Source: Terriglobia bacterium (GTDB taxonomy: Bacteria; Acidobacteriota; Terriglobia; Terriglobales; Acidobacteriaceae). From it: DNA of 24,000 nucleotides. The DNA lies in assembly GCA_963757835.1 (NCBI GenBank), contig CAVWSP010000017.1:37671-61670 (forward strand), in the 5' to 3' direction. Within the stretch, counting starts at the first letter, position 1; each line of letters opens with the position of its first letter. The notes under the pieces are model-generated. The model was not told the origin of the DNA and ran no database searches. It saw only the letters and a program-made list of their open reading frames with translations. The position numbers and the translations under genes are program-made. Shown here one piece after another: positions 490 to 19,809 of this stretch.

Positions 490-642
490 CAGTCGTCGGT
501 CGTCAGGAAATCGTCGTTGGCCGTTGGTCTTTGGCCTTTGGTCTTTGGCCAAACCTGGTGCCTGCCAGTATCCGGGACCTCAGCTACAATGGATTGGCCA
601 ACGACCAAGGGCCAACGGCCAGCGACGATTTCCCAACGACTC
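490..642. repeat. heptad-periodic intergenic repeat H1 (nadD-rsfS spacer), two inverted arms
   Basis: Nine in-phase 7-mers span 490-552: cagtcgt cggtcgt caggaaa tcgtcgt tggccgt tggtctt tggcctt tggtctt tggccaa. Reverse-complement units span 596-642. Positions 506-543 pair with 596-633. Confidence 0.85.
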
Positions 643-1062
643 ATGACCAAAAACGATTCGAAACACCAGGTCTCCGAAGCCATCCGTGCCTGCCTGGAAA
701 AGAAGGCGGAAGAAATCACCATACTGGAACTGGAAAAAGGGTCGGGAGCGTTCACCGACTACTTCGTAGTGTGCAGCGGGACGAATCCGCGGCAGGTCCA
801 GGCCATTGCCGACGAGGTGGAATTGCGCTTGAAAGGGGCGGGTCAGCGGCCCACTCACATCGAGGGCTACAAGCAGGCGGAGTGGGTGTTGCTCGACTAC
901 GTCGATTTCGTGGTCCACGTTTTCTCCGAGAAGGCGCGCAAATTTTATGATCTCGAGCGCTTGTGGAAGTCAGCGCGCCGGATGGAGCCGGCCGAGCTGG
1001 TGGCCGCGCCGGCAAGGCAAAAGCGCACCCCGGTTCGCGGCCTGCGGAAGAAGCGAGCCTGA
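643..1062 (+). CDS. rsfS: ribosome silencing factor RsfS (iojap family)
   Basis: FTDYFVVCSGTNPRQVQAIADEV...EGYKQAEWVLLDYVDFVVHVFSEKARKFYDLERLW is the RsfS core. I chose the ATG at 643; the upstream part of ORF 517.. is translated heptad repeat. Confidence 0.9.
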   Translation: MTKNDSKHQVSEAIRACLEKKAEEITILELEKGSGAFTDYFVVCSGTNPRQVQAIADEVELRLKGAGQRPTHIEGYKQAEWVLLDYVDFVVHVFSEKARKFYDLERLWKSARRMEPAELVAAPARQKRTPVRGLRKKRA

Positions 1063-1151
1063 GTTTTCTGGTTAAGTCCTTGGCCGACGCTTCAAGCCAT
1101 TTCTGACCCGTTGCCCTCTGTGTACTCGGTGTCCTCTGTGGTTAAATCCCA

Positions 1152-1595
1152 TTGGTGAAACTCAAAGTTGCGTGGATTGGGAAGACTAAAGAACCCGCCA
1201 TCCAGTCTCTGACGGATGAATACCTGAAGCGTCTGTCACGTTACGCCGAAGTTGACGGGACCACGCTCAAAGACGAGGCGGCGGTTTTGAAGCTATGCAC
1301 GCGGGAGGCACGGCCCCGGCACACGCTGGTCCTGCTCGACCAGCGAGGCAGGCAGCTTTCCTCGGAGGAACTGGCCCAATTCCTGGGCGACTATCAGGAC
1401 CGGAACCCCCTGGCCTTGCTGTTTGCGGTGGGCGCGGCGGACGGCTTTACTGACCAGGCGCGGCAGGCGGCCACGCTGGTGCTTTCCCTGGGCAAGATGA
1501 CGCTGGCGCACGAACTGGCGCGGGTGGTCCTGCTGGAGCAACTCTACCGGGCCTTCACCATTCTAAAGGGTCACCCCTACCATCTGGGGCATTGA
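1152..1595 (+). CDS. rlmH: 23S rRNA (pseudouridine1915-N3)-methyltransferase RlmH (SPOUT)
   Basis: Matches RlmH over its full length: LLDQRGRQLSSEELAQFL...LLFAVGAADGF...LSLGKMTLAHELARVVLLEQLYRAFTILKGHPYH. The start is TTG 1152 or GTG 1155. Confidence 0.9.
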   Translation: MVKLKVAWIGKTKEPAIQSLTDEYLKRLSRYAEVDGTTLKDEAAVLKLCTREARPRHTLVLLDQRGRQLSSEELAQFLGDYQDRNPLALLFAVGAADGFTDQARQAATLVLSLGKMTLAHELARVVLLEQLYRAFTILKGHPYHLGH

Positions 1596-1720
1596 GACCA
1601 ATTCAGGAATTCAGGCGTGTACCTTCGTGATGTTCCCAGATTGGGCTCTGGAAGCCTAGAGTCGAGATGGCAGCAGAATAACGCTGTGTACCCAGCCCTC
1701 CCCTTTAAGGATTGATTGTG

Positions 1721-1879
1721 ATGAAGAATCCATTTGAAGTGTTGAAGACGAAAGAGCAGGAAGTCGCCAAAGTCAAGAAAGAGATCAATGCGCTGCGGGT
1801 CACGATTCAGCTGATCGGGGACGAGAAAAACGCCGCCGACCACAAAGTGGACCTGCACTCTGTTATCGAAATGCCGTAG
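1721..1879 (+). CDS. hypothetical small protein (52 aa, predicted helical/charged)
   Basis: Sequence MKNPFEVLKTKEQEVAKVKKEINALRVTIQLIGDEKNAADHKVDLHSVIEMP. AAGGA lies 9-10 nt upstream of the ATG, and third codon positions are mostly G/C as in neighbouring genes. A perfect intrinsic terminator follows. It is absent from the ORF track only because of the length cutoff. No homology recognised. Confidence 0.5.
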   Translation: MKNPFEVLKTKEQEVAKVKKEINALRVTIQLIGDEKNAADHKVDLHSVIEMP

Positions 1880-1920
1880 TCCGCAATCTCTCGTTCAGCC
1901 TGGAAATAACATTGATCGAG

Positions 1921-1947
1921 CACGGGCGTCCCCGCCCGTGTTTTTTT
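1921..1947 (+). terminator. rho-independent terminator
   Basis: cacgggcg-tccc-cgcccgtg forms a perfect 8-bp GC stem, followed directly by T7 (1941-1947). Confidence 0.85.
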
Positions 1948-1962
1948 GTCGCCAAAACGCCC

Positions 1963-2077
1963 GGGTGGGGAGAGCCGCCTCCGGCTCTCCAGTCGAGCGC
2001 AGCTCGACCGGGGTTTGCCGACAGAAAAATAGCGGAGCTTTGCTCCGCCGGACAGCCGAGGGCGGCTGTCTCCACCC
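1963..2077. repeat. E2 palindromic-repeat inverted doublet (REPIN/MITE-like)
   Basis: Left copy 1963-2011: gggtggggagagccgcctccggctctccagtcgagcgcagctcgaccgg. Right copy inverted, 2031-2077: ...ccggacagccgagggcggctgtctccaccc. Same family as 8479-8527, 14827-14965 and 23661-23698. Confidence 0.8.
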
Positions 2078-2196
2078 TGTTCTCCACGTGATTCTCTGCG
2101 TTGTTCTTAACCTGGCCACTGATCAGGAGGCGGTGCACGAGCGGGGCGCTCGCGCCCACATTCGGCGGGAACAGGTACAATTAAAGATTCGCCGGT

Positions 2197-2733
2197 ATGC
2201 CGGACATCCGCCGTGGTCTCATCATCGTGAATACCGGCCCGGGCAAGGGCAAAACCACTGCTGCCATGGGCACGGCTTTGCGGGCGGTGGGGCAGGGCAT
2301 GCGCGTCCTGATGCTGCAGTTTTTGAAGGGCTCGTGGCACTACGGCGAGCTCGATGCGGTGCAGGCTTTTGGCGACAAGTTCATCATGAAGCAGATGGGC
2401 CGCGGCTTCGTGAAAGTGGGCAGCGAAAAGCCCGATCCCGAAGATGTCCGCATGGTGGAAGAGGCCTGGGCGGAGGCTGCCCAGGCAATCAATTCCGGCG
2501 CCTGGGACCTGGTGATCCTGGATGAGATCAACTATGCCATCAGTTATGGCATGCTCGATCCCGCCAAAGTGGTGGAGACTCTGAAGAGCAAACCTGAAAT
2601 GGTGCACATTATCTTGACCGGGCGAAACGCCCATCCGACAATTGTCGAGGTCGCGGACACCGTGACCGAGATGCGCCAGGTCAAGCACGCCTACGAGAAG
2701 GGCGTCATGGCGCAGAGAGGGATTGAGTACTAA
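2197..2733 (+). CDS. cobO: cob(I)yrinic acid a,c-diamide / cob(I)alamin adenosyltransferase (CobA/CobO/BtuR family)
   Basis: GLIIVNTGPGKGKTTAAMGTALRAVGQGMRVLMLQFLKG (P-loop), then DLVILDEINYAISYGML, ILTGRNAHPTIVEVADTVTEMRQVKHAYEKGVMAQRGIEY. Confidence 0.85.
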   Translation: MPDIRRGLIIVNTGPGKGKTTAAMGTALRAVGQGMRVLMLQFLKGSWHYGELDAVQAFGDKFIMKQMGRGFVKVGSEKPDPEDVRMVEEAWAEAAQAINSGAWDLVILDEINYAISYGMLDPAKVVETLKSKPEMVHIILTGRNAHPTIVEVADTVTEMRQVKHAYEKGVMAQRGIEY

Positions 2734-2737
2734 ACGT

Positions 2738-2845
2738 CAGGCGTCAGTCTTCGGTCTTCAAGACTTCGCCGCCCGAGACAAGCACGGCTAGTAAAGGTTT
2801 TGACCTTCGACTGAAGACTGACGACCGACGACTGACGACCGACTT
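2738..2845. repeat. heptad-periodic intergenic repeat H2 (cobO-accD spacer), inverted arms
   Basis: Left arm 2738-2765: caggcgt cagtctt cggtctt caagact. Right arm 2811-2845: ctgaaga ctgacga ccgacga ctgacga ccgactt, ending exactly at the accD ATG. Positions 2743-2756 pair with 2809-2822 (13 WC + 1 G.U). Confidence 0.85.
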
Positions 2846-3730
2846 ATGGCATGGTTCAAACGACAAGCCGGTGAGCTGGATACTTCGGGCGAGCGCAAGA
2901 TTCGCACCGAGGGGCTGTGGGTGAAGTGTGAGACCTGCCGGCAGATTATCTGGAAGAAAGACCTGGAGGAGAACCTCAACGTTTGTCCCAAGTGCGACCG
3001 TCATTTCCGCATTGATGCGCGCACCCGCCTGGCCCAGTTGCTGGATGACAATGAGTACGAAGTTTCCGACTCTAACCTGACTTCCACCGACCCCTTGAAA
3101 TTTGTGGACCTCAAGGCCTACTCGGCGCGCCTCAAGCAGGCGCAGGCCGATACCGGATTGAAGGACGCCATAATCAACGCCCGCGGAAAGCTGAATGGGC
3201 GGACCGTGATCGTAAGCTCGATGGAGTATGCGTTCATCGGGGGAAGCATGGGAGCGGTGGTGGGCGAGGCCATCACCCGGGCCATTGAGCAGGCCACCGA
3301 AACCAGGGTGCCGATCGTGATCGTTTCCGCCTCGGGCGGGGCGCGCATGATGGAAGGCGTGATCAGCCTGATGCAACTGGCCAAGATTTCGGCCGCGCTG
3401 GCCCGGTTGGATGAGGCCAAGGTGCCGTTTATTTCGATCCTGACCGACCCTACTACGGGAGGCGTGACGGCATCCTTCGCCATGCTCGGCGACCTGAATA
3501 TCGCCGAACCCGGCGCTTTGATCGGCTTCGCCGGCCCGCGAGTGATTGAACAGACCATCCGCCAGAAACTTCCCCAGGGCTTCCAGCGGAGCGAATTTCT
3601 GCTCGAGCACGGCATGCTGGACGCGGTGGTGCACCGGCGCCAGCTGAAGTCATTCATTTCGCGGTCGCTGGATTTTATGGATCAGTCTGAAGGGCAGTCG
3701 TCAGTCGTCGGTCGTCAGACGTCAGCTTAG
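2846..3730 (+). CDS. accD: acetyl-CoA carboxylase carboxyltransferase beta subunit AccD
   Basis: N-terminal Zn ribbon CETCRQ...CPKCDRHFRIDARTRL. CT domain SMEYAFIGGSMGAVVGE...VSASGGARMMEG. accD-folC synteny. The last ~12 codons (EGQSSVVGRQTSA) are heptad-repeat sequence. Confidence 0.95.
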   Translation: MAWFKRQAGELDTSGERKIRTEGLWVKCETCRQIIWKKDLEENLNVCPKCDRHFRIDARTRLAQLLDDNEYEVSDSNLTSTDPLKFVDLKAYSARLKQAQADTGLKDAIINARGKLNGRTVIVSSMEYAFIGGSMGAVVGEAITRAIEQATETRVPIVIVSASGGARMMEGVISLMQLAKISAALARLDEAKVPFISILTDPTTGGVTASFAMLGDLNIAEPGALIGFAGPRVIEQTIRQKLPQGFQRSEFLLEHGMLDAVVHRRQLKSFISRSLDFMDQSEGQSSVVGRQTSA

Positions 3731-3884
3731 AACCTCAGTGGCCAGTCTTCAGTTCCCGGTTGTCAGACACTCCATCGAGCTGCCTACTTCCTCTGTTCGG
3801 CCCGCCAGTTCGACGATTCGACGGGCTGGGCTCGAAAGCTTAAACCCGAAGCTGGTACCCTTGTTTGCTGAAGACTGACGACCG
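3695..3884. repeat. heptad-periodic intergenic repeat H3 (accD 3' end to folC start)
   Basis: First run 3695-3729: cagtcgt cagtcgt cggtcgt cagacgt cagctta. A second phased run with CAG/CGG every 7 nt spans 3736-3770. The distal arm ctgaaga ctgacga ccg (3868-3884) abuts the folC ATG. It is perfectly complementary to 3743-3752 and to 3709-3718 (10 bp each). Confidence 0.85.
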
Positions 3885-5237
3885 ATGTCTTCCTACGAAA
3901 CTGCCATCGCGCGCATGAACGCATTGGGCCATGAACTGGCCCAAACGCCCTCGCACAAGTTCGATCTGGCGCACATGCGTGTGCTGCTCGCGGCGCTGGA
4001 TAATCCTGAGCGGCATTTCCCCAGCGTCCTGATTGCGGGGACGAACGGCAAGGGATCGACCGCAGCGACGCTGGCTTCGATCCTGCAGGCGTCGGGGTTG
4101 CGCACCGGGCTCTATACCTCTCCCCACCTGGTGCGGATCAACGAGCGCATACAGATCGGCGGGCAGCAGATCGGCGATGACGATTTTGCCCTGGTCCACG
4201 ACCTGGTGGACCGCACCGCCGAGCGCCTGGCCGGCGAGGGCGAGTTGCCGTGGCATCCCAGTTTTTTCGAGATGCTGACTGCGATTGCATTTGAGCACTT
4301 CGCGCGCCGGAAGGTGGAAATCGCGGTGCTCGAGGTCGGCATGGGCGGACGCCTGGATGCGACCAACGTGGTGGAACCGATCGTCAGTGTCATCACCGAT
4401 ATCTCGCTCGACCATCAGAAATTCCTGGGAGACTCCGTGACCGAGATCGCGGGCGAGAAGGCGGGAATCATTCGTCCGGGCGGAGTGGTGGTCACGCTTC
4501 CGCAACAGCCCCAGGCCAACGACGTAATCGGAAACACGATTCTTGAACTGAACGCGCGGGCAGTGAATGCGGTGCCGTATGTGCCGCCGGTGAGTCCGGC
4601 CAGCGCCCAATACCTGGCGGCCGGTAGCGAAAAGAATCCGGTTTCGCGTTATCCGATGCAGGTGATGGGGGAGCAGATCCTGGTCGAAACACCGTTGATC
4701 GGGCGCCACCAGTTGCGAAACGTCGCTTTGGCCATTGCGGCCGCGGAGGAACTGGGCCGGCAGGGATTTGGCGTGACGGCGGCCTCGATTGAACGGGGCA
4801 TTCGCGAAAGCCATTGGCCGGGACGCTTCCAGGTGATGCCCGCCGGCGGCGGTGCACCTGAATATGTATTCGATGTGGCGCATAATCCGGCCGGGGCATG
4901 GGCGCTGCGCTCGACTCTTTCGGCTGGCTATGCGGAGCGTCCGCTGACGTTTATTTTTGGCGCGATGCGAGACAAGGCCATTGGAGAAATGGCTGAAATC
5001 CTGTTTCCGCTGGCGGAGCGGGTGATCGCCACTCGGGCCGACAATCCCCGGTCTGCCGCGCCTGAGGACATTCGAGAGGCGGCGTCCCGGACCTCGACCC
5101 AGATCGAAGAAGCCGCGGACGTGGCCGCCGCCCTGAAACTGGCACGAACCTCGGCCCGGCCGGATGCTGTGGTGGTTGTTACTGGATCGATATACATTGT
5201 AGGAGAGGCGATGCGGCTGCTCGGAGCGCGCATCTAA
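3885..5237 (+). CDS. folC: bifunctional folylpolyglutamate synthase / dihydrofolate synthase FolC
   Basis: Mur-ligase P-loop IAGTNGKGSTAATLASIL, then VLEVGMGGRLDATNV, HWPGRFQ, FDVAHNPAGAWAL. Located downstream of accD. Confidence 0.93.
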   Translation: MSSYETAIARMNALGHELAQTPSHKFDLAHMRVLLAALDNPERHFPSVLIAGTNGKGSTAATLASILQASGLRTGLYTSPHLVRINERIQIGGQQIGDDDFALVHDLVDRTAERLAGEGELPWHPSFFEMLTAIAFEHFARRKVEIAVLEVGMGGRLDATNVVEPIVSVITDISLDHQKFLGDSVTEIAGEKAGIIRPGGVVVTLPQQPQANDVIGNTILELNARAVNAVPYVPPVSPASAQYLAAGSEKNPVSRYPMQVMGEQILVETPLIGRHQLRNVALAIAAAEELGRQGFGVTAASIERGIRESHWPGRFQVMPAGGGAPEYVFDVAHNPAGAWALRSTLSAGYAERPLTFIFGAMRDKAIGEMAEILFPLAERVIATRADNPRSAAPEDIREAASRTSTQIEEAADVAAALKLARTSARPDAVVVVTGSIYIVGEAMRLLGARI

Positions 5238-6074: not shown

Positions 6075-6106
6075 GTTGTGGGACTGCAAAGTGGGATTTA
6101 CAGAAA

Positions 6107-7246
<1,140 letters not shown>

Positions 7247-7326
7247 TAAACAAAAATGCCCCGGCTCCCGCGCCGAGGCTTGGGGCCGCGAAGTTCCCGG
7301 GCGACCCGCTGATTGCTTTTCGAACG

Positions 7327-7590: not shown

Positions 7591-7625
7591 TGATTTTCAG
7601 TTTCCAGTTTCTGGTTTCTTGTTTC
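7591..7625. repeat. heptad-periodic repeat H6 (rplU-rpmA spacer, rpmA leader)
   Basis: tgatttt cagtttc cagtttc tggtttc ttgtttc. On the coding (minus) strand this reads gaaacaa gaaacca gaaactg gaaactg aaaatca directly followed by the rpmA ATG. Confidence 0.8.
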
Positions 7626-7643: not shown

Positions 7644-8129
7644 CTACTTCTTCTTTTTCGGCGCCGTTTTCTTGGGCGCTGCTTTTTTGTGCGCTGCCTT
7701 CTTGGCCGGGCTTTTGGCCGCCTTGGCCTCGGCCTTGGGCGCGTGTTCTTCTACTTCTGCCGGCTTCACTTTCTTCGGCTTCGCCTCTTTTTTCGGGAGG
7801 TCGGGGGCGGAGAATTTCTGGCCGTCGTAGGCGATCTCCGTGATGCGGACCGCGGTGTATCCCTGGCGATGTCCGCGCAGTTTCTTGTACTGCTTCTTGC
7901 GTTTGTAATGGAAGACCAGAATCTTCGCGCCGCGGCCCTGTTCCACGACTTCGCCGGTCACGAGCGCGGTGGATTGCGGACGCCCAATCTGGCCGGGCTC
8001 GCCGGAGACGGCCAGCACGTCGTTGAACTCGATTTTCCCGTCGGTGCCGTTGCCCTGGTTCTCCAGCCGAATCACATCGCCGGGCGCCACCCGGTACTGT
8101 TTACCACCGGCGCGGATGACCGCGTACAT
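7644..8129 (-). CDS. rplU: 50S ribosomal protein L21 with a ~60-aa Lys/Ala/Pro-rich C-terminal extension
   Basis: MYAVIRAGGKQYRVAPGDVIRLE...HRQGYTAVRITEI is the L21 core. GGAGG lies 7 nt upstream of the ATG at 8129. The ORF-track N-terminal extension to 8231 was rejected. Confidence 0.93.
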   Translation of the reverse strand: MYAVIRAGGKQYRVAPGDVIRLENQGNGTDGKIEFNDVLAVSGEPGQIGRPQSTALVTGEVVEQGRGAKILVFHYKRKKQYKKLRGHRQGYTAVRITEIAYDGQKFSAPDLPKKEAKPKKVKPAEVEEHAPKAEAKAAKSPAKKAAHKKAAPKKTAPKKKK

Positions 8130-8282
8130 ACTTATGCCTCCGTCCAATCTTGTGCCCGTCGCGGCCTGGCGCGATTGCCGGGAACCTGCTGAATTTCCTG
8201 TGCTTGCTTTCCGCGTCGGCGCTTTCGGCAACGATTGCGGGGCGGCTCCAGAACGGAGCCGTGAGTACAGGCAAACCCATCC

Positions 8283-8312
8283 ATTTTAGCGTGTGCTGTG
8301 GAAAAGCGTCAA
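8283..8312 (-). promoter_or_regulatory. sigma70-type promoter of rplU-rpmA-obg
   Basis: On the minus strand: TTGACG (8312-8307), an 18-nt spacer, then TAAAAT (8288-8283). The predicted TSS near 8276 gives a leader of about 147 nt. Confidence 0.6.
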
Positions 8313-8356
8313 ACCCGCAGAGGAGGGGCGATGCCAAGGCCACGAACTTGCGGGTA

Positions 8357-8458
8357 GTGTGGGTCGGACACTCTTGTCCGACGCCGTTGAAGTTGGACTG
8401 GCCGAAACCCAAAAAACAGCAACGTCAAAAGCGTCGGACAAGAGTGTCCGACCCACAC
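8357..8458. repeat. E1 palindromic-repeat inverted doublet (REPIN-like)
   Basis: Inverted copy 8357-8399: gtgtgggtcggacactcttgtccgacgccgttgaagttgg. Forward copy 8417-8458: cagcaacgtcaaaagcgtcggacaagagtgtccgacccacac. Confidence 0.85.
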
Positions 8459-8478
8459 CGTCGCCCGGCACGAAGAAT

Positions 8479-8527
8479 AGCGGAGCCTTGCTACGCTGGA
8501 CAGCCGGGGGCGGCTGTCCCGACGTGG
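8479..8527 (-). repeat. E2 palindromic repeat, single copy
   Basis: agcggagccttgctacgctggacagccgggggcggctgtcccgacgtgg. The hairpin is GGACAGCCG/CGGCTGTCC. Confidence 0.8.
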
Positions 8528-8594
8528 TTCGCGGCGGGCTTTGAGCTTTCTGCCGCCTTGTGCGACAATTCCTCGCCGCACGGGAGGAACATCA

Positions 8595-9074: not shown

Positions 9075-9148
9075 CAGAACGCAGACTGAAGACTGCAGAT
9101 TTCAGATTGAAGGATCGAGCGCGACCCGACAAATCTGAGATCTGCAAT
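9075..9148. repeat. heptad-periodic repeat H7 (convergent spacer), hairpin
   Basis: Left arm: cagaacg cagactg aagactg cagattt cagattg aaggatc (9075-9116). Opposite arm: ctgagat ctgcaat (9135-9148). Positions 9095-9108 pair with 9132-9145 (13 WC + 1 G.U). Confidence 0.8.
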
Positions 9149-9150
9149 TT

Positions 9151-9918: not shown

Positions 9919-10084
9919 GGGTAAAGGTTTATCACAAGAGTTGATTGACCACGAAGCATGGAGGGCGCCAGTCTCCACGTTTCCGCGGCGTCGTTCCGAT
10001 TTTCGTCCTGCTACCGTTTCATGTTCCGCGCCGTCTGATGGCAAGGATATCCGCGGAGGAGCGATGGTCCAAGTCAACAAACCG

Positions 10085-10127
10085 AAGTCAACTTCAAAGG
10101 CGTCGGACAGGAGTGTCCGACCCACAC
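10085..10127 (+). repeat. E1 palindromic repeat, single copy
   Basis: aagtcaacttcaaaggcgtcggacaggagtgtccgacccacac. Confidence 0.85.
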
Positions 10128-10144: not shown

Positions 10145-10699
10145 ATGATGGATTATGTCCAGATCTGGAAGCATTGCCGAATTGCCCTGATTTTCCTGAC
10201 CCTGACCTGTCTGGCCAGCGCCCGTCAGGGCAATGGGGCGGCGCAACCCAAGCCCTGTTCAGAGCCGGAACAGAAGCAACTCGAGTTCTGGGTAGGCGAA
10301 TGGGACCTTACGTGGCCGGGAAATAATCCGGCCGAAACCGCCCACGGAACCAACAGCATCCGGCGAATCCTCGACGGCTGCGTCGTGGAGGAAAATTTCT
10401 CCGGCGGCGAGGCCATGCATCTGCGGGGGCGGAGCGTATCCATTTACGACGTACGCGCGCGCAAATGGAAGCAGACATGGGTGGACAACGAGGGTGGATA
10501 CCTCGATTTCGCCGGCGAGTTCAAAGACGGACAGATGGTCCTGGGGCGGGAGGCTACTCGTCCTGACGGCAGCAAAGGCCTGCAGCGCATGGTCTTCAAA
10601 AACATCAGCCGTGATGAGTTCGACTGGAGTTGGGAAAGCTCGAAAGACGGCGGCAAGACGTGGACCGTCGCCTGGCCCATTCACTACAAGCGCAGGTGA
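10145..10699 (+). CDS. exported DUF1579-like protein (family assignment tentative)
   Basis: Signal peptide MMDYVQIWKHCRIALIFLTLTCLASA. EFWVGEWDLTW...ILDGCVVEENFSG...WKQTWVDNEGGYLDFAGEFKDGQMVL resembles DUF1579. Confidence 0.55.
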   Translation: MMDYVQIWKHCRIALIFLTLTCLASARQGNGAAQPKPCSEPEQKQLEFWVGEWDLTWPGNNPAETAHGTNSIRRILDGCVVEENFSGGEAMHLRGRSVSIYDVRARKWKQTWVDNEGGYLDFAGEFKDGQMVLGREATRPDGSKGLQRMVFKNISRDEFDWSWESSKDGGKTWTVAWPIHYKRR

Positions 10700-10702
10700 G
10701 GA

Positions 10703-10813
10703 CGGACGTCGGGCGTCAGGCGTCAGACATCGGCCCCAAAACTCCTAGGTTCTGCAGAGGATCATTGGCGCATCTGCCGGGTCTGAAGGCCGGGGTCCGC
10801 CGCCCGACGTCCG
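10703..10813. repeat. heptad-periodic repeat H8 (convergent spacer) with distal complementary arm
   Basis: cggacgt cgggcgt caggcgt cagacat cggcccc (10703-10737). Positions 10703-10715 are perfectly complementary (13 bp) to 10801-10813. Confidence 0.75.
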
Positions 10814-10824
10814 CCGTACGGTTC

Positions 10825-12572: not shown

Positions 12573-14807
12573 TAAATACTGAGAGCTGGGGAAAAATCCT
12601 GCTGCGTCGGGCACGCCTTCGTGGCGTGCTCCTGGCGCTCACCGTATTCTTGCTGAGCACCGGTTGCAGTCGTCCGCCGGCCAAGACAGAAACCGCCGCG
12701 CCGGAGCCATCTTCGCAGATCAAAGTCGAGGTCAAGCAGGGTGGGCCCATTGTGCTGACCACGAGTACAGCCGAGTTTCAGATATCGCCGTCAGGATACA
12801 TACAGGCGGCGCTGCTCAAAGGCGACCAGAGGCTCACACTGGACCAGGCCGGAGCGGGCGGCAGTGATGTGCTGGTGCTCGATGGCAAACCGGTTCCGTT
12901 CACCCTGGACCTGGGTGCGGCCAAGGTCGAGGACAGCGTGGGCAAGCTGGGCCGCGGTAAGCGTCTGGAGATTCCGGCGCAGGCCCCTTCCGGCTCCAAC
13001 ATCCAGCGCACGCTGCAGGTCGAAGTTTATGACGCGTTTCCCAACCTGCTGCTCTCGAGTGCAGCATATAAGAACGCCGGCACACAGGACGTTCACATCG
13101 ACAGCGTGGTCGAGCAGCAGCACAAATTCGATGCCGGCCTGGCGCAGAAGAATGCAAAGCCGTATGACATGTGGAGCTACCAGGGGGCAAGCTACGACTG
13201 GGGAAAGGACGACGTCTTAAAACTGGGCCACAACTTCGCACAACCCAACCTGATGGGCGCGGCGGTGAAAGGCGGCTATGGCGGCGGGATTCCGGTAGTC
13301 GCATTCTGGACGGGCTCGGTAGGCGAAGCTGTGGGTCACGTAGAAACCTTGCCGCTGACTTTGTCACTGCCGGTCAAGGTCGGGGCCGACGGTGGCGTGA
13401 ACGCGGGCATTGACATCGCTGCCGATACCACACTGAAGCCCGGGGAAACTTATTCCACGCCGCGCAGTTTTGTTTCCGTGTACTCCGGCGATTTTTATGA
13501 GCCGCTGCATCTGTGGTCGAGCGTGCTGCAGAAAGAAGGATGGGAAATCCCCAAGCCTTCAGGCGAAGCCTACAACGTGAGCTGGTGCGGCTGGGGTTAT
13601 GAATTCAACGTCACTCCGGCGGAGATGCTGGGCACGGTGCCGAAGTTAAAGGAGTTTGGCATCAAGTGGGCCACTCTGGACGATCGCTGGTTTGACACTT
13701 ATGGAGACTGGAATCCCCGTGCGGACACCTTTCCCGGCGACTCCATCAAGAAAATGACGGATGACTTCCATAAGCAGGGCATGCTGGTGCAGCTGTGGTG
13801 GTTACCGCTGGGGGTGGAAGACGGGCAGGGCAGATGGGAGTCGCACAAATATATCGTGTCGAAGATTGCGCAGGAGCATCCGGAGTGGCTCATCCTCGAC
13901 AAGAACGGCAAACATGCGCGCATGACCCGCGACCTGGCGACGCTGTGTCCGGCGGTCCCTGAGGTGCAGGCGTACTTCAAGAAGCTGACTGAGAAATTTA
14001 TCGGCGAATGGGGCTTCGATGGATCGAAGCTGGACAATATCTACAGCGTGCCCATGTGCTACAACCCGGCGCATCATCACAAGTCTCCGCAGGATTCGGT
14101 CAACGCCATGGCCGACGTGTACAAGACAATTTTTCAGACCAGCCGAGCGCTGAAGCCGGAGAGCGTGACCCAGAGCTGTCCCTGCGGCACGCCGCCCTCA
14201 CTGGCCTGGCTGCCGTTTATCGACCAGGCAGTGACGGCTGATCCGGTGGGCGCAATCCAGGTGCGCCGCCGCATCAAGATGTACAAAGCGCTGCTGGGGC
14301 CGGAGTCCGCGGTGTATGGCGATCACGTCGAACTCTCGACCATGGATCGCATCGGGAACAACTGGCGCGAGCACGGTGAAGATTTCGCTTCCACCATCGG
14401 CCCCGGCGGCGTGGTAGGAACAAAGTTTGTATGGCCCGATCCCGGACCCGAAATACAAGGCCGTGGCCCTCACCCCGGAGAAGGAAGCACACTGGAAGAA
14501 GTGGATCGGTATTTACAACCAGAAGATGCTTTCGAAGGGAACGTTCCGCAATCTCTACGTTTACGGGTACGACACGCCGGAAGCTTACGCCATCGAAAAA
14601 GACGGCAAGATGTACTACGCGTTTTTCGCTCCCTCGTCCGCACCGTGGAAGGGCGAGATCGAACTGCGCGGGCTTACACCCGGCAGTTATCACGTTCGCG
14701 CCTATGCTGAAGACAAAGACCTGGGAACGGTAGAAGCCACGGCGGATGCGGCTCCCCGGCTCAAAACGGAATTCAAAGACCATTTGTTGCTGGAAGTGAG
14801 CCCGTAG
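12569..14807 (+). pseudogene. clan GH-D (GH27/36-like) alpha-galactosidase-family lipoprotein, reading frame broken by a +1 shift between 14418 and ~14451 (true frameshift or homopolymer sequencing error)
   Basis: Lipobox-like signal MINTESWGKILLRRARLRGVLLALTVFLLSTGC. Barrel motifs WATLDDRWF..YGDW..TFPG, GMLVQLWWLPLG, HPEWLILD, GFDGSKLDN. The upstream frame turns into Arg-rich nonsense after ~14450. The protein-like C-terminus (DPKYKAVALTPEKEAHWKKWIGIYNQKML...YYAFFAP...LLLEVSP) continues in the +1 frame to 14807. Total length of 2239 nt is 3n+1. Confidence 0.7.
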
Positions 14808-14826
14808 ATTCGTGTTTGTGTAGGCA

Positions 14827-14965
14827 GATCACGTGGGGACAGCCGCCCTCGGCTGTCCAGTGGAGCGGAGCTCTACAATAATTTTCAGTCCGCCCACATT
14901 TTTATTCTGGGGAATCGTCGAGCTGTGCTCGACCGGACATCCGAGGGCGGCTGTCCCCACGTGAT
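14827..14965. repeat. E2 inverted doublet, MITE/REPIN-like (139 bp)
   Basis: The termini gatcacgtggggacagccgccctcggctgtcc (14827-14858) and ggacatccgagggcggctgtccccacgtgatc (14934-14965) are inverted repeats, 31 of 32 identical. Inner gtcgagc..gctcgac module; AT-richer centre. Confidence 0.85.
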
Positions 14966-14978
14966 CCTGGGTCGAAAA

Positions 14979-15018
14979 GCAAAGTCAAAGGCGTCGGACA
15001 GGAGTGTCCGACCCACAC
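14979..15018 (+). repeat. E1 palindromic repeat, single copy (overlaps the 3' end of the PfkB gene)
   Basis: gcaaagtcaaaggcgtcggacaggagtgtccgacccacac. Confidence 0.85.
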
Positions 15019-16031: not shown

Positions 16032-16108
16032 TGGTGGACCCGGAGAGACTTGAACTCCCAACCCCTGCGTTCGAAGCGCAGTGCTCTATCCAGTTGAGCT
16101 ACGGGTCC
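16032..16108 (-). tRNA. tRNA-Arg (anticodon UCG), CCA encoded
   Basis: Reverse complement GGACCCGTAGCTCAACTGGATAGAGCACTGCGCTTCGAACGCAGGGGTTGGGAGTTCAAGTCTCTCCGGGTCCACCA. Has a 7-bp acceptor stem GGACCCG/CGGGTCC, D arm GCTC..GAGC, anticodon stem CTGCG/CGCAG with loop CT-TCG-AA, and T loop TTCAAGT. Confidence 0.93.
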
Positions 16109-16255: not shown

Positions 16256-16281
16256 GTAGCGCCGGCGGGCGCCGGCGCTAC
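16256..16281. other. GC-rich perfect palindrome (12-bp arms)
   Basis: gtagcgccggcg-gg-cgccggcgctac, located between the tRNA-Arg upstream region and dinB. Function unknown. Confidence 0.6.
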
Positions 16282-16325: not shown

Positions 16326-16838
16326 ATGTCCGAAAATGAATTAACGGAGCCCTGGCTTCGCGGTTCGTTGCTGGAAATCCCGGCGGTGCAGCGCGCAGTG
16401 GTGCATGCGCTCCATCTGGCGAAGGAAGACTTGCAACGCTGGTGCGGCGGTTTGAGCGATGAGCAGATCAATGAGCGTCCGGGCGGGCTGCCGCCGGTGG
16501 CGTTTCATTTGCGCCACATTGCCAGGAGCCTGGACCGTTTGCTTACCTACGCCGAAGGACGAGATTTGAACGATGAGCAGTTGAGCGCCAGGCAGGCGGA
16601 GATGGACCCGGGGACGACGCGCGAAAAACTCTTTGCGGAGCTGAACGCGGCGTTGGCGATGAGCGAGGGCCGGATCCGGGCGGTTGATTCGGATTCGCTG
16701 GAACAGGGCCGGACGGTAGGCCGCAAGCACTCGCCCACGACTCTCGGCGGGTTGCTGGTGCATGTCGCTGATCACACCCAGCGTCACGTGGGACAGGCTG
16801 TCACGACTGCCAAACTTGTTTCGATGGTTGCCGATTGA
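16326..16838 (+). CDS. DinB-family (DinB_2/DUF664-like four-helix-bundle) protein
   Basis: Conserved His positions in AFHLRHIARSLDRLL and LLVHVADHTQRHVGQAV are typical of the DinB superfamily. GAGGTG lies upstream. Confidence 0.7.
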   Translation: MSENELTEPWLRGSLLEIPAVQRAVVHALHLAKEDLQRWCGGLSDEQINERPGGLPPVAFHLRHIARSLDRLLTYAEGRDLNDEQLSARQAEMDPGTTREKLFAELNAALAMSEGRIRAVDSDSLEQGRTVGRKHSPTTLGGLLVHVADHTQRHVGQAVTTAKLVSMVAD

Positions 16839-16840
16839 GT

Positions 16841-16864
16841 AACCCGCGGCTTACGCCGCGGGTT
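16841..16864. terminator. hairpin between convergent dinB and the Q-rich gene (terminator-like, no U tract)
   Basis: aacccgcggc-ttac-gccgcgggtt forms a perfect 10-bp stem. There is no T-run on either strand, so terminator function is only suggested. Confidence 0.35.
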
Positions 16865-16891
16865 CACTCGTCACCGCGCAGTGCTCAATTC

Positions 16892-16935
16892 AAAGTCAAC
16901 ATCAAAGGCGTCGGACAGGAGTGTCCGACCCACAC
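16892..16935 (+). repeat. E1 palindromic repeat, single copy
   Basis: aaagtcaacatcaaaggcgtcggacaggagtgtccgacccacac. Confidence 0.85.
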
Positions 16936-16946
16936 GTTCCTTCTTT

Positions 16947-18200
16947 CTAGTGCAGCGACTGCAGATTGAGAATCAGTGACAGCACGTTGCCCAGGACACT
17001 GTACGAGCCATTGGAATAGGCACCGTACTGGTAGCGGTTGTAGTAGCCGTCTTCGTACCCGCGCTGAAAACCCTGGCGGAAATAGTAGTTATAGTCAGCC
17101 TGGTCCACGTAGTAGCCACTGTAGCCGAAGTTCGCGTCCTGATAGGCGAAACTGTCCTCGTAATCGGCGCGCCAGTGGTCTTCCCGGTCGGCGGCTCCGG
17201 CCCGGAAGCCTTCGCGGTAGCCGTTGTTCACAGCCTCCCGCAGCAAGTCCGCCCCGTACTGATTGACTTCATAGTACGAGCCACCCCGGTTATAGCGATA
17301 AATCGGGGCGGTATAGAAGTAGGGATCGTTGTCGTAGTCGTGATGCTCGCGCCGCAGGCGTTCATCCTGCTGGCGCTCGCGCTCATAGTATTCCTGCTGA
17401 AAGCGGTATTGCGCCATGCGCCGCTGCTGTTGCAGGGCGGCACCCCGCTGCTGGCCGATGCGTTCCTGCTGGTCCAGATGCTGGCGGTACTGCGTAACCC
17501 GCTGTTGTTGCTGCCGGATCAGTTCCTGCTGGCGCTGTTGCGAAAGCCGTTGCTGGTTGAGGTGCGACTGCTCCTGCGCCTGGTGTTGCTGCTGCTGGTT
17601 CAGCTGTCTTTGCCGCTCCTGTTCCTGGCGCTGCTGCTGATTCTGCACCTGCTGCTGTTGCGCATGCTCTCGCTGTTGCGCCTGCTCTTTTTGACGTTGC
17701 TGCTGCATCTGCTCATTCTGGTGCTGCTGCTGCTGGGCGTGCTCCTGCTGCTGGCGAGCGCGTTCCTGCTGGGCATGCTGTTGCTGCTGCATCTGCTCAT
17801 TCTGGTGCTGCTGCTGCTGGGCGTGCTCCTGCTGCTGGCGAGCGCGTTCCTGCTGGGCATGCTGTTGCTGCTGCATCTGCTCATTCTGGTGCTGCTGCTG
17901 CTGGGCGTGCTCCTGCTGCTGGCGAGCGCGTTCCTGCTGGGCATGCTGTTGCTGCTGCATCTGCTCATTCTGGTGCTGCTGCTGTTGGGCGTGCTCCTGC
18001 TGCTGGCGCTCTTGTTCCTGGCGCTGGTTGCCCTGTTCCCGCTCCTGCTGCGGCTTGGGTTGGGGATGCGCTTCAGGCCTGGCCGTCTTCTCAGGCTTCG
18101 ATTCTTTCTCGTCCTGGTGATCTTGCTGCGAGTAGAGCGGAACACTGACTCCCAAAAACAGGAACAGAACCGTCGTAAGGCCTGCGCCGAATCTTTTCAT
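16947..18200 (-). CDS. secreted Gln/His/Glu-rich tandem-repeat protein with Tyr/Gly/Asn/Asp-rich C-terminal domain (no family recognised)
   Basis: GGAGGA lies 4 nt upstream of the ATG. Signal peptide MKRFGAGLTTVLFLFLGVSVPLYS. The 28-aa unit EHAQQQQHQNEQMQQQQHAQQERARQQQ is repeated, followed by a long Q/R/E region. The C-terminus reads ...NNGYREGFRAGAADRED...YFRQGFQRGYEDGYYNRYQYGAYSNGSY. Confidence 0.8.
   Translation of the reverse strand: MKRFGAGLTTVLFLFLGVSVPLYSQQDHQDEKESKPEKTARPEAHPQPKPQQEREQGNQRQEQERQQQEHAQQQQHQNEQMQQQQHAQQERARQQQEHAQQQQHQNEQMQQQQHAQQERARQQQEHAQQQQHQNEQMQQQQHAQQERARQQQEHAQQQQHQNEQMQQQRQKEQAQQREHAQQQQVQNQQQRQEQERQRQLNQQQQHQAQEQSHLNQQRLSQQRQQELIRQQQQRVTQYRQHLDQQERIGQQRGAALQQQRRMAQYRFQQEYYERERQQDERLRREHHDYDNDPYFYTAPIYRYNRGGSYYEVNQYGADLLREAVNNGYREGFRAGAADREDHWRADYEDSFAYQDANFGYSGYYVDQADYNYYFRQGFQRGYEDGYYNRYQYGAYSNGSYSVLGNVLSLILNLQSLH
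17704..18008. repeat. 84-bp tandem repeat, 3 perfect copies plus ~0.6 of a fourth (inside the Q-rich CDS)
   Basis: Units start at 17704, 17788, 17872 and 17956. The first three are identical nucleotide for nucleotide. The fourth has one T/C difference, then diverges after ~50 nt. Confidence 0.95.
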
Positions 18201-18339
18201 AGTTCCTCCACTGCGTTGATTAGATGCCGCAGGGCCCAGCGTGCCGTACGAGTTTACCCGTATTTTGTGAATGGCGCTGCCTTAGAAAGATGGTCGGCGC
18301 AGCCAGCTTTAAGGTTCGGTTCAGACTTCTGTCGGGCAT

Positions 18340-18417
18340 GAACGTTAAAGATGAACGTAAAGAGCGTCGGACAGAGCCTGCCCTGAGCGAAGTCGAAGGG
18401 AGTGTCCGACCCACACA
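18340..18417 (+). repeat. E1 palindromic repeat carrying an E3 element inside its hairpin loop
   Basis: gcgtcggacag-[agcctgccctgagcgaagtcgaaggg]-agtgtccgacccacac. The bracketed 26 nt (18375-18400) are identical to the reverse complement of 23786-23811. Confidence 0.85.
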
Positions 18418-18483
18418 TGCTGAGCTCCGCTTACCCCCGATGGTATGATGCTGGCCGAGCGCGAGCAGCCGGGCCTTGCCCGG

Positions 18484-18516
18484 CTGGACGGGCGAGGGCG
18501 CCCGCCCCTACGTGGG
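18484..18516 (-). repeat. diverged E2-like hairpin repeat
   Basis: ctggacgggcgagggcgcccgcccctacgtggg, compared with canonical ggacagccgagggcggctgtccccacgtgg. Both stem arms are changed in a paired way. Confidence 0.6.
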
Positions 18517-18554
18517 TGGTGGTGGAACGAAGCAATCCGGGAGGATATCGACAC

Positions 18555-19730
18555 ATGTCGGCAAGAACAAGAATTCTGGTTGCACTGTTGGGTTTACTGA
18601 CCGCATCCTCGTTTCTCTCCGCGCAGGAGAAGACGTTGGCCGCTACTCCTCCGATGGGGTGGAACAGCTGGAACAAATTCGCATGCCATGTGAGCGAAGA
18701 CCTGATTCGGCAAATGGCTGATGCCATGGTCAAGTCCGGCATGAAGGACGCCGGGTATCAATACATCGTGATCGACGATTGCTGGCAGGTGGAGCGCGAC
18801 GCCAGCGGCAACATCGTGCCCGATGCCAAGACTTTTCCCTCAGGCATCAAGGCGCTGGCGGATTACGTTCACTCCCGCGGGCTCAAGTTCGGGATCTACT
18901 CGGACGCCGGGGTCAAGACTTGCGCCAAGCGGCCCGGCAGCCTGGGCCATGAATATCAGGACGCGCTGCAGTACGCCGCCTGGGGCGTCGATTACCTGAA
19001 ATACGACTGGTGCAACACTTCCACCCAGGACGCGCAGGCCGCCTACGCGCTGATCCGCAATGCGCTGAATGCCACCGGCCGGCCCATTGTGTTAAGCATC
19101 TGCGAATGGGGCACAGCCAAGCCATGGCTTTGGGGCGAAAGCGTGGGTGGAAATCTTTGGCGCACTACCGGCGACATTCGCGACCAGTGGGAGAGCAAGG
19201 ACAAGCATCACCTCGGCATGCTCGACATCCTCGATCTGCAGAATGGAATCGAGGGCTACGCTGGACCCGGCCACTGGAACGACCCTGACATGCTCGAAGT
19301 GGGCAACGGCGGCATGACCACGGAGGAGTACCGCGCCCACTTCAGCCTGTGGTCCATACTCGCGGCGCCTCTGATTGCAGGTAACGATCTGCACGACATG
19401 AAGCCGGAGATCCACGACATTCTCACCAATAAGGAAGTGATCGCGGTAGATCAGGATCCTCTGGGCAGCGAGGGCCGCCGGGTGCTGAAAGACGGCGACC
19501 TGGAAGTCTGGGCCAAGCAGATGCAGGATGGAAGCCGCACCGTGGTCCTGCTCAATCGCGACACCAGCGAAAAGCAAATCGGCTTCTCCTGGGAAGCTAT
19601 TGGATATCCCAATCACGTGAGTGCCGGCGTGCGTGATCTGTGGAAGGCCAAGGATTTGGGACAGTTCAAAGGAAAGTTCTCCGCCGCGGTTGGGCCGCAT
19701 GCAGTGGTAATGGTTAGAGTCGCACCCTGA
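18555..19730 (+). CDS. secreted alpha-galactosidase, glycoside hydrolase family 27
   Basis: GGGAGGA RBS and signal peptide MSARTRILVALLGLLTASSFLSAQ. Motifs PPMGWNSWNKFAC, YIVIDDCWQ, GLKFGIYSDAG, VDYLKYDWC (nucleophile motif), WNDPDMLEVGN (acid/base motif). Confidence 0.93.
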   Translation: MSARTRILVALLGLLTASSFLSAQEKTLAATPPMGWNSWNKFACHVSEDLIRQMADAMVKSGMKDAGYQYIVIDDCWQVERDASGNIVPDAKTFPSGIKALADYVHSRGLKFGIYSDAGVKTCAKRPGSLGHEYQDALQYAAWGVDYLKYDWCNTSTQDAQAAYALIRNALNATGRPIVLSICEWGTAKPWLWGESVGGNLWRTTGDIRDQWESKDKHHLGMLDILDLQNGIEGYAGPGHWNDPDMLEVGNGGMTTEEYRAHFSLWSILAAPLIAGNDLHDMKPEIHDILTNKEVIAVDQDPLGSEGRRVLKDGDLEVWAKQMQDGSRTVVLLNRDTSEKQIGFSWEAIGYPNHVSAGVRDLWKAKDLGQFKGKFSAAVGPHAVVMVRVAP

Positions 19731-19775
19731 ACGGTCTCCGATCGACGAAGAACATTTCCGACAACGGACTGAAGG

Positions 19776-19809
19776 GAGAACCGGTTTTCAGTTGCCGGTT
19801 CTCAGTTCT
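19776..19809. repeat. heptad-periodic repeat H9 with hairpin (downstream of the GH27 gene)
   Basis: cggtttt cagttgc cggttct cagttct (19782-19809). gagaaccgg (19776-19784) pairs perfectly with ccggttctc (19795-19803). Confidence 0.7.

Follow-up and report, generated by a model that had tools for sequence, protein, structure and literature searches.

Tandem heptanucleotide arrays in nine intergenic gaps

The 24,000-nucleotide (nt) stretch analyzed here (the window) comprises positions 37,671 to 61,670 of contig CAVWSP010000017.1 from the Terriglobia bacterium assembly GCA_963757835.1. Its first 11 kb carry nadD, rsfS, cobO, accD, folC, plsC, obg, rpmA, and rplU, as well as genes encoding SnoaL_3, TauE, DUF1579, and YtxH proteins, and an alpha-galactosidase gene (aGal) and csbD lie further downstream; this gene map was backed by gene calls on a near-identical contig. 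Nine gaps between these genes (nadD-rsfS, cobO-accD, accD-folC, plsC-obg, rpmA-obg, rplU-rpmA, SnoaL_3-TauE, DUF1579-YtxH, and aGal-csbD) hold genuine tandem arrays of 7-nt units, which confirms the central claim of an earlier note made from the sequence alone. The arrays very probably represent an intergenic heptanucleotide simple sequence repeat (SSR) class of the kind known as STRR, TAACTGA, and Xanthomonas GGGAATC repeats, built in most cases as two inverted arrays around a short loop.

Arrays were detected by counting matches between positions i and i + p in 21-nt windows, at cut-offs of at least 14/21 and at least 16/21, with 100 dinucleotide-preserving shuffles of the window as a control. 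Period 7 gave 13 segments at the lower cut-off, compared to a shuffle mean of 1.06 (maximum, 4), and 11 segments at the higher, compared to 0.01. No arrays were found in about 4 kb past each end of the window (about 32 kb of the source genome overall). At periods 2, 4, 5, 8, 10, 11, and 13, no segments reached 16/21 in the window. Period 14 (two units) also scored, and the signal at periods that are multiples of 3 stemmed from a coding repeat at 17.6 to 18.0 kb. Tandem Repeats Finder (TRF), used as an independent array caller, returned period-7 arrays at 517 to 550, 596 to 621, 2808 to 2843, 3695 to 3725, 6113 to 6139, 7174 to 7206, 7216 to 7246, 7607 to 7625, and 10707 to 10726 and a period-14 array at 19781 to 19807. 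With at least three head-to-tail copies of 7 nt, above chance, the arrays qualify as heptanucleotide long SSRs. At two sites, 513 to 550 and 2808 to 2843, period 14 (90 to 91% matches) outscored period 7 (81 to 82%), and two unit variants alternate there (TTGGTCT/TTGGCCT and CGACTGA/CGACCGA, respectively), which suggests expansion by two-unit steps.

The array bases were predominantly intergenic (465 of 548, or 85%), while intergenic DNA makes up 15% of the window. Likewise, the period-7 match fraction was 0.311 in intergenic and 0.245 in coding DNA, while at periods 5 and 8 it was near 0.25 in both; intergenic DNA additionally showed an elevated fraction at period 14 (0.294; two units) and a slight elevation at period 10 (0.273). 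The previous assertion that coding cannot explain the period holds for most arrays, with the exception of two whose units extend into accD (its final 36 nt) and obg (its final 15 nt), where they encode C-terminal residues of both proteins. As noted before, the arrays are concentrated in the housekeeping half of the window, with all but one of the 13 segments lying within the first 11 kb. All nine gaps listed in the earlier note were recovered, although the array at 3736 to 3770 is merely degenerate, and 3868 to 3884 and 9135 to 9148 are short complementary arms, not arrays; arms at 592 to 650 and 10788 to 10822 had not been listed.

The same arrays are present in independent ENA, JGI, NCBI (GCA_049590875.1), and Logan assemblies and are thus not an artefact of assembly. 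An independent contig of the same species (L002; JGI contig Ga0673032_0075108) ends in the accD-folC array region, near window position 3759, which is consistent with repeats breaking short-read assemblies.

Predicted hairpins and arm polarity

Most of the arrays follow one general layout, in which the upstream stop codon is followed by (CAGnnnT)n, a loop, (AnnnCTG)n, and the downstream ATG. In co-directional gaps, the 5' arm begins where the upstream open reading frame (ORF) terminates, or already within its 3' end, and the 3' arm runs as far as the start codon of the next gene. An inverted partner array was found in six to seven of the nine gaps, and the stable folds predicted for them agree with the earlier proposal that most loci carry reverse-complement arrays able to pair. 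The minimum free energy was -93.9 kcal/mol for nadD-rsfS (dinucleotide shuffles, -55.3 kcal/mol; z = -10.1) and -51.6 kcal/mol for rpmA-obg (shuffles, -27.5 kcal/mol; z = -7.3). Less negative z scores against such shuffles were obtained for SnoaL_3-TauE (-4.8), cobO-accD (-4.6), DUF1579-YtxH (-2.9), and aGal-csbD (-2.7), and accD-folC reached -1.8 with long-range pairing alone. No hairpin was predicted for the plsC-obg and rplU-rpmA arrays.

The two arms of a hairpin were approximately 83% complementary (234 Watson-Crick pairs in 281 aligned positions). The arms differed by indels of whole 7-nt units in two of three cases, and irregular unit order was mirrored between arms (for example, caggaaatcgtcg versus cgacgatttcc). 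When relatives were included (see below), 71 of 142 arrays had an inverted partner within 350 nt, compared to 1.25% of random 38-mers.

The order of the arms was uniform. Among 36 hairpins on 16 contigs, the 5' arm carried AG rather than CT in 32 hairpins versus 3, or 15 contigs versus 0; the corresponding counts of hairpins were 27:4 for GT versus AC, 24:2 for CAG versus CTG, and 11:0 for GGA versus TCC. CAG-type pairs in the window and its relatives had the CAG arm on the left throughout (24 arms versus 0). As an arrangement of the form X-loop-reverse complement of X reads the same on both strands, this order is intrinsic to the hairpin and not an effect of strand. A skew in keto bases (G+T) was rejected as the underlying rule, since left arms were favored by just 24:15; the asymmetry sits at the level of dinucleotides (AG and GT).

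Arrays at the individual loci

In the nadD-rsfS gap (forward strand), the 5' arm (490 to 556; cagtcgt cggtcgt caggaaa tcgtcgt tggccgt tggtctt tggcctt tggtctt tggcc) begins 1 nt past the nadD stop codon (487 to 489) and has one 7-nt unit more than the 3' arm. The 3' arm (589 to 647; ggccaac gaccaag ggccaac ggccagc gacgatttcc caacgactc) enters the rsfS start codon (643 to 645), and in the predicted fold, the rsfS AUG is paired with positions 492 to 496, which lie 3 to 7 nt past the nadD stop. The loop (557 to 588) contains a promoter-like site, CTGCCA-17-TACAAT, at 562 to 590, which matches at 9 of 12 positions and reaches 2 nt into the 3' arm. The surroundings of its -10 element (gctacaatg) are common to a sister genome (L003; 96% Obg identity) in which this gap is free of arrays. 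The loop is thus ancestral, with arrays added on both sides.

The cobO-accD hairpin (forward strand) comprises a 5' arm at 2736 to 2765 (cgtcagg cgtcagt cttcggt cttcaag), 3 nt past the cobO stop, and a 3' arm at 2806 to 2845 (cgactga agactga cgaccga cgactga cgaccgac), which ends beside the accD ATG (2846); the accD AUG is predicted to pair with the cobO stop region. In the accD-folC gap (forward strand), the 5' arm (3695 to 3729; cagtcgt cagtcgt cggtcgt cagacgt cagctta) falls within the 12 final codons of accD. It encodes a nonconserved AccD tail, as homology in relatives stops at residue 278 to 280 of 294. The degenerate internal array that follows (3736 to 3770; cagtggc cagtctt cagttcc cggttgt cagacac) falls below 14/21 and is kept in L003. 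The 3' arm (gctgaagactgacgaccg; 3866 to 3884) adjoins the folC ATG (3885) and is the partner in the predicted long-range pairing.

Around obg, an unpaired array (6107 to 6141, forward strand; cagatat cagttgt gagttct cagttct cagttgt) lies between the convergent genes plsC and obg; the final 5 obg codons and their TGA stop are part of it, with homology in relatives ending just before this Obg tail. The rpmA-obg hairpin (7174 to 7246, minus strand) is flanked by the rpmA terminator and the obg ATG (7167); in mRNA sense, its 5' arm is agctgtcagctgtcagccatcagctttcagc (7246 to 7216) and its 3' arm gctgacggctgatagctgagggctgacggctgc (7206 to 7174). The rplU-rpmA array (7598 to 7625, minus strand; gaaacaa gaaacca gaaactg gaaactg aaaatca) is unpaired and in forward orientation, directly 5' of the rpmA ATG (7590).

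Two further hairpins lie between convergent genes. The SnoaL_3-TauE hairpin (9075 to 9150) contains the units cagaacg cagactg aagactg cagattt cagattg, with aaatctgagatctgc as the partner, and the DUF1579-YtxH hairpin (10696 to 10822) consists of a 5' arm at 10696 to 10737 (gacgtcg ggcgtca ggcgtca gacatcg) and a 3' arm at 10788 to 10822. The smallest element (19776 to 19809, forward strand; gagaaccgg ttttcagttg ccggttctc agttctc), a small array or hairpin in the aGal-csbD gap, lies 3' of the alpha-galactosidase gene and is identical in four further assemblies (L223 to L226; five sequences including the window).

Arm unit and length vary by gap, and only three pairs of loci have longer strings in common. 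The stretches 6102 to 6135 and 19777 to 19810 are 79% identical, nonperiodic positions and flanks included (family D9). An 18-nt string, CTGAAGACTGACGACCGA, occurs in the accD-proximal arm (2806 to 2845) as well as in the folC-proximal arm (family D13), and CGTCAGGCGTCAG..TCGG was found after cobO as well as after DUF1579. These near-identical irregular arrays at distant gaps show that some variants have been copied between loci.

Translation and transcription signals near the arrays

The five genes whose start codons are abutted by arrays (rsfS, accD, folC, obg, and rpmA) all lacked a GGAG, GAGG, or AGGA motif at -20 to -4, while such a Shine-Dalgarno (SD) motif, mostly GGAGG, was present in 9 of 15 other genes with a checked start (one-sided Fisher P of about 0.03, in a small sample). 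For rpmA, obg, accD, and folC, arrays or arms of the CTG(A) type lie 0 to 10 nt 5' of the ATG. The rsfS-proximal arm also abuts its ATG, yet its units (ggccaac and gaccaag) are without CTG. Stop codons in all three frames before the start were considered as a possible rule and rejected, as they occurred in front of obg alone (two frames for accD and folC, one for rpmA, and none for rsfS). Enrichment of stops in the 3' arms was restricted to CAG-type hairpins, and avoidance of start codons in these arms was not supported.

A consensus terminator scan of the window returned 12 sites compared to 12.1 expected, that is, no enrichment, and inside the arrays it gave weak partial matches alone (519 to 536, 7193 to 7174, and 9097 to 9080). 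Apart from these, the heptamer hairpins were not called as intrinsic terminators, which are defined by a GC-rich stem followed by a U-tract. The intrinsic terminator of rpmA (gcctcggcgcgggagccggggcattttt; 7279 to 7258, minus strand) is apart from the heptamer hairpin and upstream of it, and it is kept as cagcctcgccttcgggacgaggcttttt across the Acidobacteriaceae-like clade. Given this conserved terminator, transcription of obg in these genomes likely depends on read-through or on a separate promoter for obg.

Variation between strains and relatives

In a strain 99.5% identical to the window (L001), the single indel within an array was an additional CGGACGT unit (window position 10702), which is direct evidence of unit-wise slippage. 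Together with the 7-nt indels between arms, it constitutes whole-unit length polymorphism as seen in SSRs.

Alignment of orthologous spacers, above all with L003, revealed both persistence and replacement: some arrays and their architecture are kept, while sequence, unit, and even period change. The sister genome retains arrays in the accD-folC, rpmA-obg, and rplU-rpmA gaps with altered units and copies, and in rpmA-obg the arms persist while the loop has been replaced. Its rsfS-rlmH gap carries arrays, whereas that of the window does not, and upstream of rplU it has a heptamer hairpin where the window has palindromes resembling repetitive extragenic palindromes (REPs). The cobO-accD gap of L003 is of equal length and keeps the layout with one arm at the stop and one at the ATG, but it is built from an unrelated period-8 unit, GTAATTNN. 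The period, previously described as kept at 7, is thus kept within the window and not in this octamer-array hairpin. Overall, three gaps (rplU-rpmA, rpmA-obg, and cobO-accD) were found reoccupied by unrelated units, even of another period.

A forward (RRAACTG)n array of 2 to 5 copies right before the rpmA ATG was more persistent and was found in about ten genomes at 79 to 100% Obg identity (window/L001, L003, L004, L007 to L011, L019, and L039). In L009 and L019, the first unit of this leader array is an exact TAACTGA. The rpmA-obg gap at 79 to 87% Obg identity contains the conserved rpmA terminator alone, and the hairpin is absent. Pyrinomonadaceae and two groundwater metagenome-assembled genomes (MAGs) have unrelated heptamer hairpins in the same gap before rpmA; these hairpins of distant families are independent acquisitions.

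Distribution and unit sequences

An Obg-based scan with one genome per species gave 80 loci with 10-kb flanks (1.38 Mb), from 96% to 51% Obg identity, in which gene orientation was judged solely at orthologues located by tblastn. The closest genomes were Terriglobia and Acidobacteriaceae MAGs (Acidobacteriota); the GC content of the host is about 60%. At 16/21 or more matches, these loci contained 94 period-7 segments, 11 of period 8, and 3 to 6 each of periods 4, 5, 10, and 11. At least one array was present in 35 of the 80 loci, and L003, L028, L041, and L043 were as rich as the window. In L028, a Terriglobia MAG at 66% Obg identity, very long inverted CAGCnnT/GCTGAnn arrays were observed at 8057 to 8443 and 12619 to 12869; one arm spans about 250 nt, or roughly 35 units, of the type found in the rpmA-obg hairpin of the window.

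Units in the relatives were diverse (AATCGTC, CGGATTT, GAGGTCA, GATTCAA, AGTTTAA, and others). A TCAG/CTGA core was present in 26 of the 94 array units (28%), whereas its frequency among random genomic 7-mers was 5.4%. Of the 35 loci with arrays, 16 contained this core. The leading YRG triplet that had been put forward as the kept feature of the units did not hold up, as the recurrent features are this core and the fixed arm polarity, while the relatives' units are many and unrelated. The sequence (CRGTCGT)3 was detected in at least 120 metagenome contigs with GC contents from 36 to 73%, with control heptamers counted in viral contigs only. There, (CAGTCGT)3 had 3 matches and heptamers of the same composition had 4, 0, and 13, so this specific unit is not special in that set. 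Rfam covariance models run on the window identified no family for the arrays; besides a tRNA, the only matches were a spurious one to a microRNA model on a palindrome (see below) and one to P26 (E = 0.78) that overlaps 7189 to 7247.

Other repeats and strain differences in the window

The arrays are distinct from the REP-like palindromic repeats of the window, as the earlier note had stated. A REP-like family (..TCAAAGGCGTCGGACAGGAGTGTCCGACCCACAC) occupies at least five intergenic sites (8350 to 8465, as an inverted pair, 10078 to 10127, 14969 to 15018, 16886 to 16935, and 18347 to 18415). The inverted pair had a spurious, sub-threshold Rfam match to a plant microRNA model (52.7 bits; gathering score, 99). 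A second dispersed family, with the palindromic core GGACAGCCGAGGGCGGCTGTCC plus AGCGGAGCTTTGCTCCGC, lies at 1961 to 2093, 8472 to 8541, 14818 to 14978, 23660 to 23700, and 23878 to 23914 and is common to metagenome contigs L106 and L198 (71 to 88% identity). Contig L143 matches the first, GTCGGACA-type family at 18359 to 18417 (93%), and all three contigs are probably from related genomes.

The ORF at 16947 to 18200 (minus strand; 417 amino acids [aa]) had no Pfam match and contains an 84-nt (28-codon) Gln/His/Leu-rich tandem repeat at 17597 to 18100, in four to five copies of 93 to 99% identity. Its orthologue has 416 aa in an ENA contig and 360 aa in NCBI GCA_049590875.1, and these length differences between assemblies are possibly due to repeat copy number. 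A melibiase-like glycoside hydrolase ORF (12461/12569 to 14710) stops at a TGA (14708 to 14710) where L001 has GGA. As the L001 gene was called at 770 aa and extends to about 14881, the window copy has a premature stop, around which substitutions between the window and L001 are unusually dense (14255 to 14726). At 16262 to 16278, L001 differs by 42-nt and 17-nt insertions beside the GC palindrome gcgccggcgggcgccggcgc, which sits between a tRNA gene (16035 to 16108, minus strand) and a DinB-family gene.

Probable origin and possible function

The arrays probably originated by replication slippage, through which whole 7-nt units are gained and lost, combined with templating of one arm by the other. 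The arms are inverted copies that stay alike, likely through template switching or conversion between arms. At the RNA level, a function is possible, and several forms of it can be proposed from the position of the arrays. Because the arms of co-directional gaps lie at the stop and start codons, the hairpin would mask an SD-less initiation region, which a ribosome finishing the upstream gene could free (coupling by unmasking). The stem of 25 to 55 bp would also be a plausible RNase III substrate separating cistrons, comparable to the hmw hairpin of Haemophilus influenzae. Unpaired forward arrays, as before rpmA, may serve as unstructured, SD-independent leaders in the manner proposed for TAACTGA, and the nadD-rsfS 3' arm would do likewise if the promoter-like site in the loop gave rise to a transcript with this arm only. 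Identity, origin, and RNA-level function taken together as one account are slightly favored.

Several observations weigh against this account. Sense-strand mismatches in 8 hairpins comprised 15 G·U and 11 A·C, and this lack of bias offers no hint that RNA pairing is under selection. Convergent gaps contain hairpins as well, and coupling is not applicable at rpmA-obg, where a terminator precedes the hairpin. The position of the arms at codons may be automatic whenever an element fills a short gap. Many close relatives are array-free near obg, and arrays were gained or lost between genomes at 96% Obg identity; the patchy presence and fast turnover inferred from this are what would be expected of a nearly neutral or selfish repeat. 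Furthermore, slippage leaves the fixed arm polarity, the preference for 7, and the near-identical irregular arrays at distant loci unexplained, and of these the polarity is the most interesting unexplained feature.

Some of these features could be accounted for if the arrays were dispersed elements of the REPIN, miniature inverted-repeat transposable element (MITE), or cyanobacterial SDR type, copied as units into intergenic sites, either through an enzyme acting in trans or through conversion from locus to locus. In that case, the 7-nt period would characterize the element family and would not reflect local slippage. Such an origin would be in line with the fixed polarity, the strings common to distant gaps (6102 to 6135 and 19777 to 19810, CTGAAGACTGACGACCGA, and CGTCAGGCGTCAG..TCGG), the wide GC range of metagenome contigs with (CRGTCGT)3, and the occupation of sister gaps by other repeat types (the octamer in cobO-accD; REP-like versus heptamer repeats upstream of rplU). 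However, loops are unrelated between hairpins, and the ancestral nadD-rsfS loop indicates that arms were added rather than inserted in one piece; unit and copy number vary by gap, and about half of the arrays are unpaired. The arms act as inverted repeats, but as judged by eye only, there were no target duplications or terminal inverted repeats beyond the arrays; no transposase was found in the window and no RAYT gene in the window, L001, or L223. We regard mobile elements as rather unlikely. An origin by chance, composition, or assembly is extremely improbable, as nothing beyond the tendency of repeats to break assemblies (seen where L002 ends) speaks for it, and the excess over shuffles, the agreement of four assembly sources, and the conservation in the sister genome speak against it.

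With respect to function, the arrays may be phased sites for a protein that binds single-stranded nucleic acid with a footprint of about 7 nt (Csp, S1, or a dedicated regulator; OB-fold) and would thereby regulate how the adjoining genes are translated or how their RNA folds. The sequence GTCTTTG, the preferred heptamer of Bacillus subtilis CspB, occurs in an array of the window. Forward arrays abut SD-less start codons, the TCAG/CTGA core is enriched in the units, and binding of S1, Csp, or CsrA has been proposed for TAACTGA (PMC4679880). However, a fixed binding site for such a hypothetical protein is difficult to reconcile with the high diversity of units across gaps and genomes, an octamer array in an orthologous gap, and the unremarkable frequency of (CAGTCGT)3 in viral contigs, which makes this reading improbable. 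The hairpins could also terminate or attenuate transcription, in both directions where genes converge, or stabilize 3' ends in a way similar to REPs and BIMEs, since the stems are stable and three hairpins or arrays lie between convergent genes (plsC/obg, SnoaL_3/TauE, and DUF1579/YtxH). Intrinsic terminator stems have an AG- or G-rich 5' arm and a CT- or C-rich 3' arm, and in this they resemble the array hairpins. Yet most stems are without a U-tract, the scan found no more sites than expected, rpmA is terminated by a conserved hairpin of its own, and four hairpins are inside apparent operons, directly before essential genes. Termination is hence slightly less probable still than protein binding.

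More far-reaching is the notion of a polar, cross-phylum class that is made or used by conserved machinery and is not a passive product of slippage. It is suggested by the fixed polarity (in Xanthomonas too), the 5-fold enrichment of TCAG/CTGA, the reuse of gaps, and the SD-less abutted starts. Such machinery might be a dedicated activity that adds repeats by extending the 3' ends at either side of a break or segment, which would give exactly the polarity observed, or a conserved factor with a 7-nt footprint that reads the repeats as an SD-independent initiation or coupling signal. We consider this distinctly unlikely, and slippage with arm templating remains the preferred origin. Coupling by unmasking, RNase III processing, and SD-independent leaders are all directly testable in this system, which offers a comparative series from a one-unit difference between strains, through a sister genome with another unit or period and a clade-wide rpmA leader array, to hairpins in distant families. 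Even as selfish or mutational debris, the arrays would be relevant to annotation (AccD and Obg tails; the rsfS start call) and to breaks in assemblies.

Comparison with known heptanucleotide repeats

Heptanucleotide repeats have been known from cyanobacteria since 1990. The short tandemly repeated repetitive (STRR) sequences of heterocystous cyanobacteria, reportedly described by Mazel et al. in 1990, are said to have the units CCCCAGT (STRR1), TTGGTCA (STRR2), and CAACAGT (STRR3). Like these, the arrays described here are tandem 7-nt units in non-coding DNA with several variants per genome, dispersed over nine gaps in 24 kb, and the likeness pointed out in the earlier note extends to a CAGT core (CAGTCCC and CAGTCAA in rotated STRR1 and STRR3, compared to CAGTCGT and CAGTCTT here). 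A census found no unit identical to STRR1, STRR2, or STRR3. The nearest are TTGGTCT (6/7 to STRR2) and CAGTCGT (5/7 to rotated STRR1 and STRR3). The host also differs (Acidobacteriota), and most arrays here are paired with an inverted partner in a fixed polarity and lie directly at stop and start codons.

TAACTGA repeats are known from Beggiatoaceae, Cyanobacteria, and Bacteroidetes, in forward orientation just 5' of start codons, where they overlap the expected ribosome-binding site (RBS), also within ribosomal protein operons; S1, Csp, or CsrA has been proposed to bind them (MacGregor 2015, PMC4679880). The forward position near the start, the overlap of the expected RBS in SD-less genes (a small sample), including those of ribosomal protein operons, and the patchy phylogeny are all found here as well. 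In contrast, the window contains GC-rich variants (CTGACGA, CTGAAGA, GCTGACG, and GAAACTG), no exact TAACTGA, and mostly inverted pairs, whereas 169 of 170 sets in a Beggiatoa genome are direct and one is indirect (PMC4679880).

In Xanthomonas, GGGAATC repeats form 70 to 75 pairs per genome with a fixed "convergent" orientation and are capable of forming stem-loops (Rehm et al. 2015, PMC4692102). The resemblance includes a GC-rich host, intergenic arrays mostly between co-directional genes, the fixed orientation of pairs, and gaps that are conserved between species while array length and sequence vary; the Xanthomonas repeats are transcribed. Both this unit and its Nostoc counterpart, GGGGA(T/C)T, have G-tracts and form G-quadruplexes (PMC4692102). 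Units in the window are without GGG tracts, so an explanation by G-quadruplexes does not transfer.

A heptamer array as a hairpin arm is also known from the 5' untranslated region of hmw1A and hmw2A in H. influenzae, where (ATCTTTC)n makes up one side of a long hairpin in the RNA and RNase III cleavage was shown experimentally to raise expression (Rapun-Araiz et al. 2025, PMC12721329). Copy number shifts by 7 nt in that case too, but it is a single adhesin contingency locus with a G-rich, nonrepeat right arm, while here both arms are arrays and many loci adjoin housekeeping genes. REP, BIME, and REPIN elements (Bertels and Rainey 2011, PMC3116915) are likewise intergenic, hairpin-forming inverted doublets that turn over between strains and species, with different families in the same gaps and coexistence with other palindromic repeats. 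However, REPs are palindromic units of 20 to 35 nt that are moved by RAYT and have no 7-nt period, unlike the variable tandem arrays that form the arms here.

Heptanucleotides are the commonest long SSRs in prokaryotes, according to Mrazek et al. 2007 insofar as that work is reported in PMC4679880 and PMC4692102. The searched literature held no description of such repeats in Acidobacteria, and the earlier statement that no equivalent was described stands for the host phylum and not for GC-rich genomes in general, as equivalents are known from GC-rich Xanthomonas (PMC4692102) and from Beggiatoaceae and Bacteroidetes (PMC4679880). Overall, the arrays fit the heptanucleotide SSR class, fall outside the sequence and host definitions of each named family, and, with the host phylum alone being new, extend this class to the Acidobacteriota, an abundant soil phylum.

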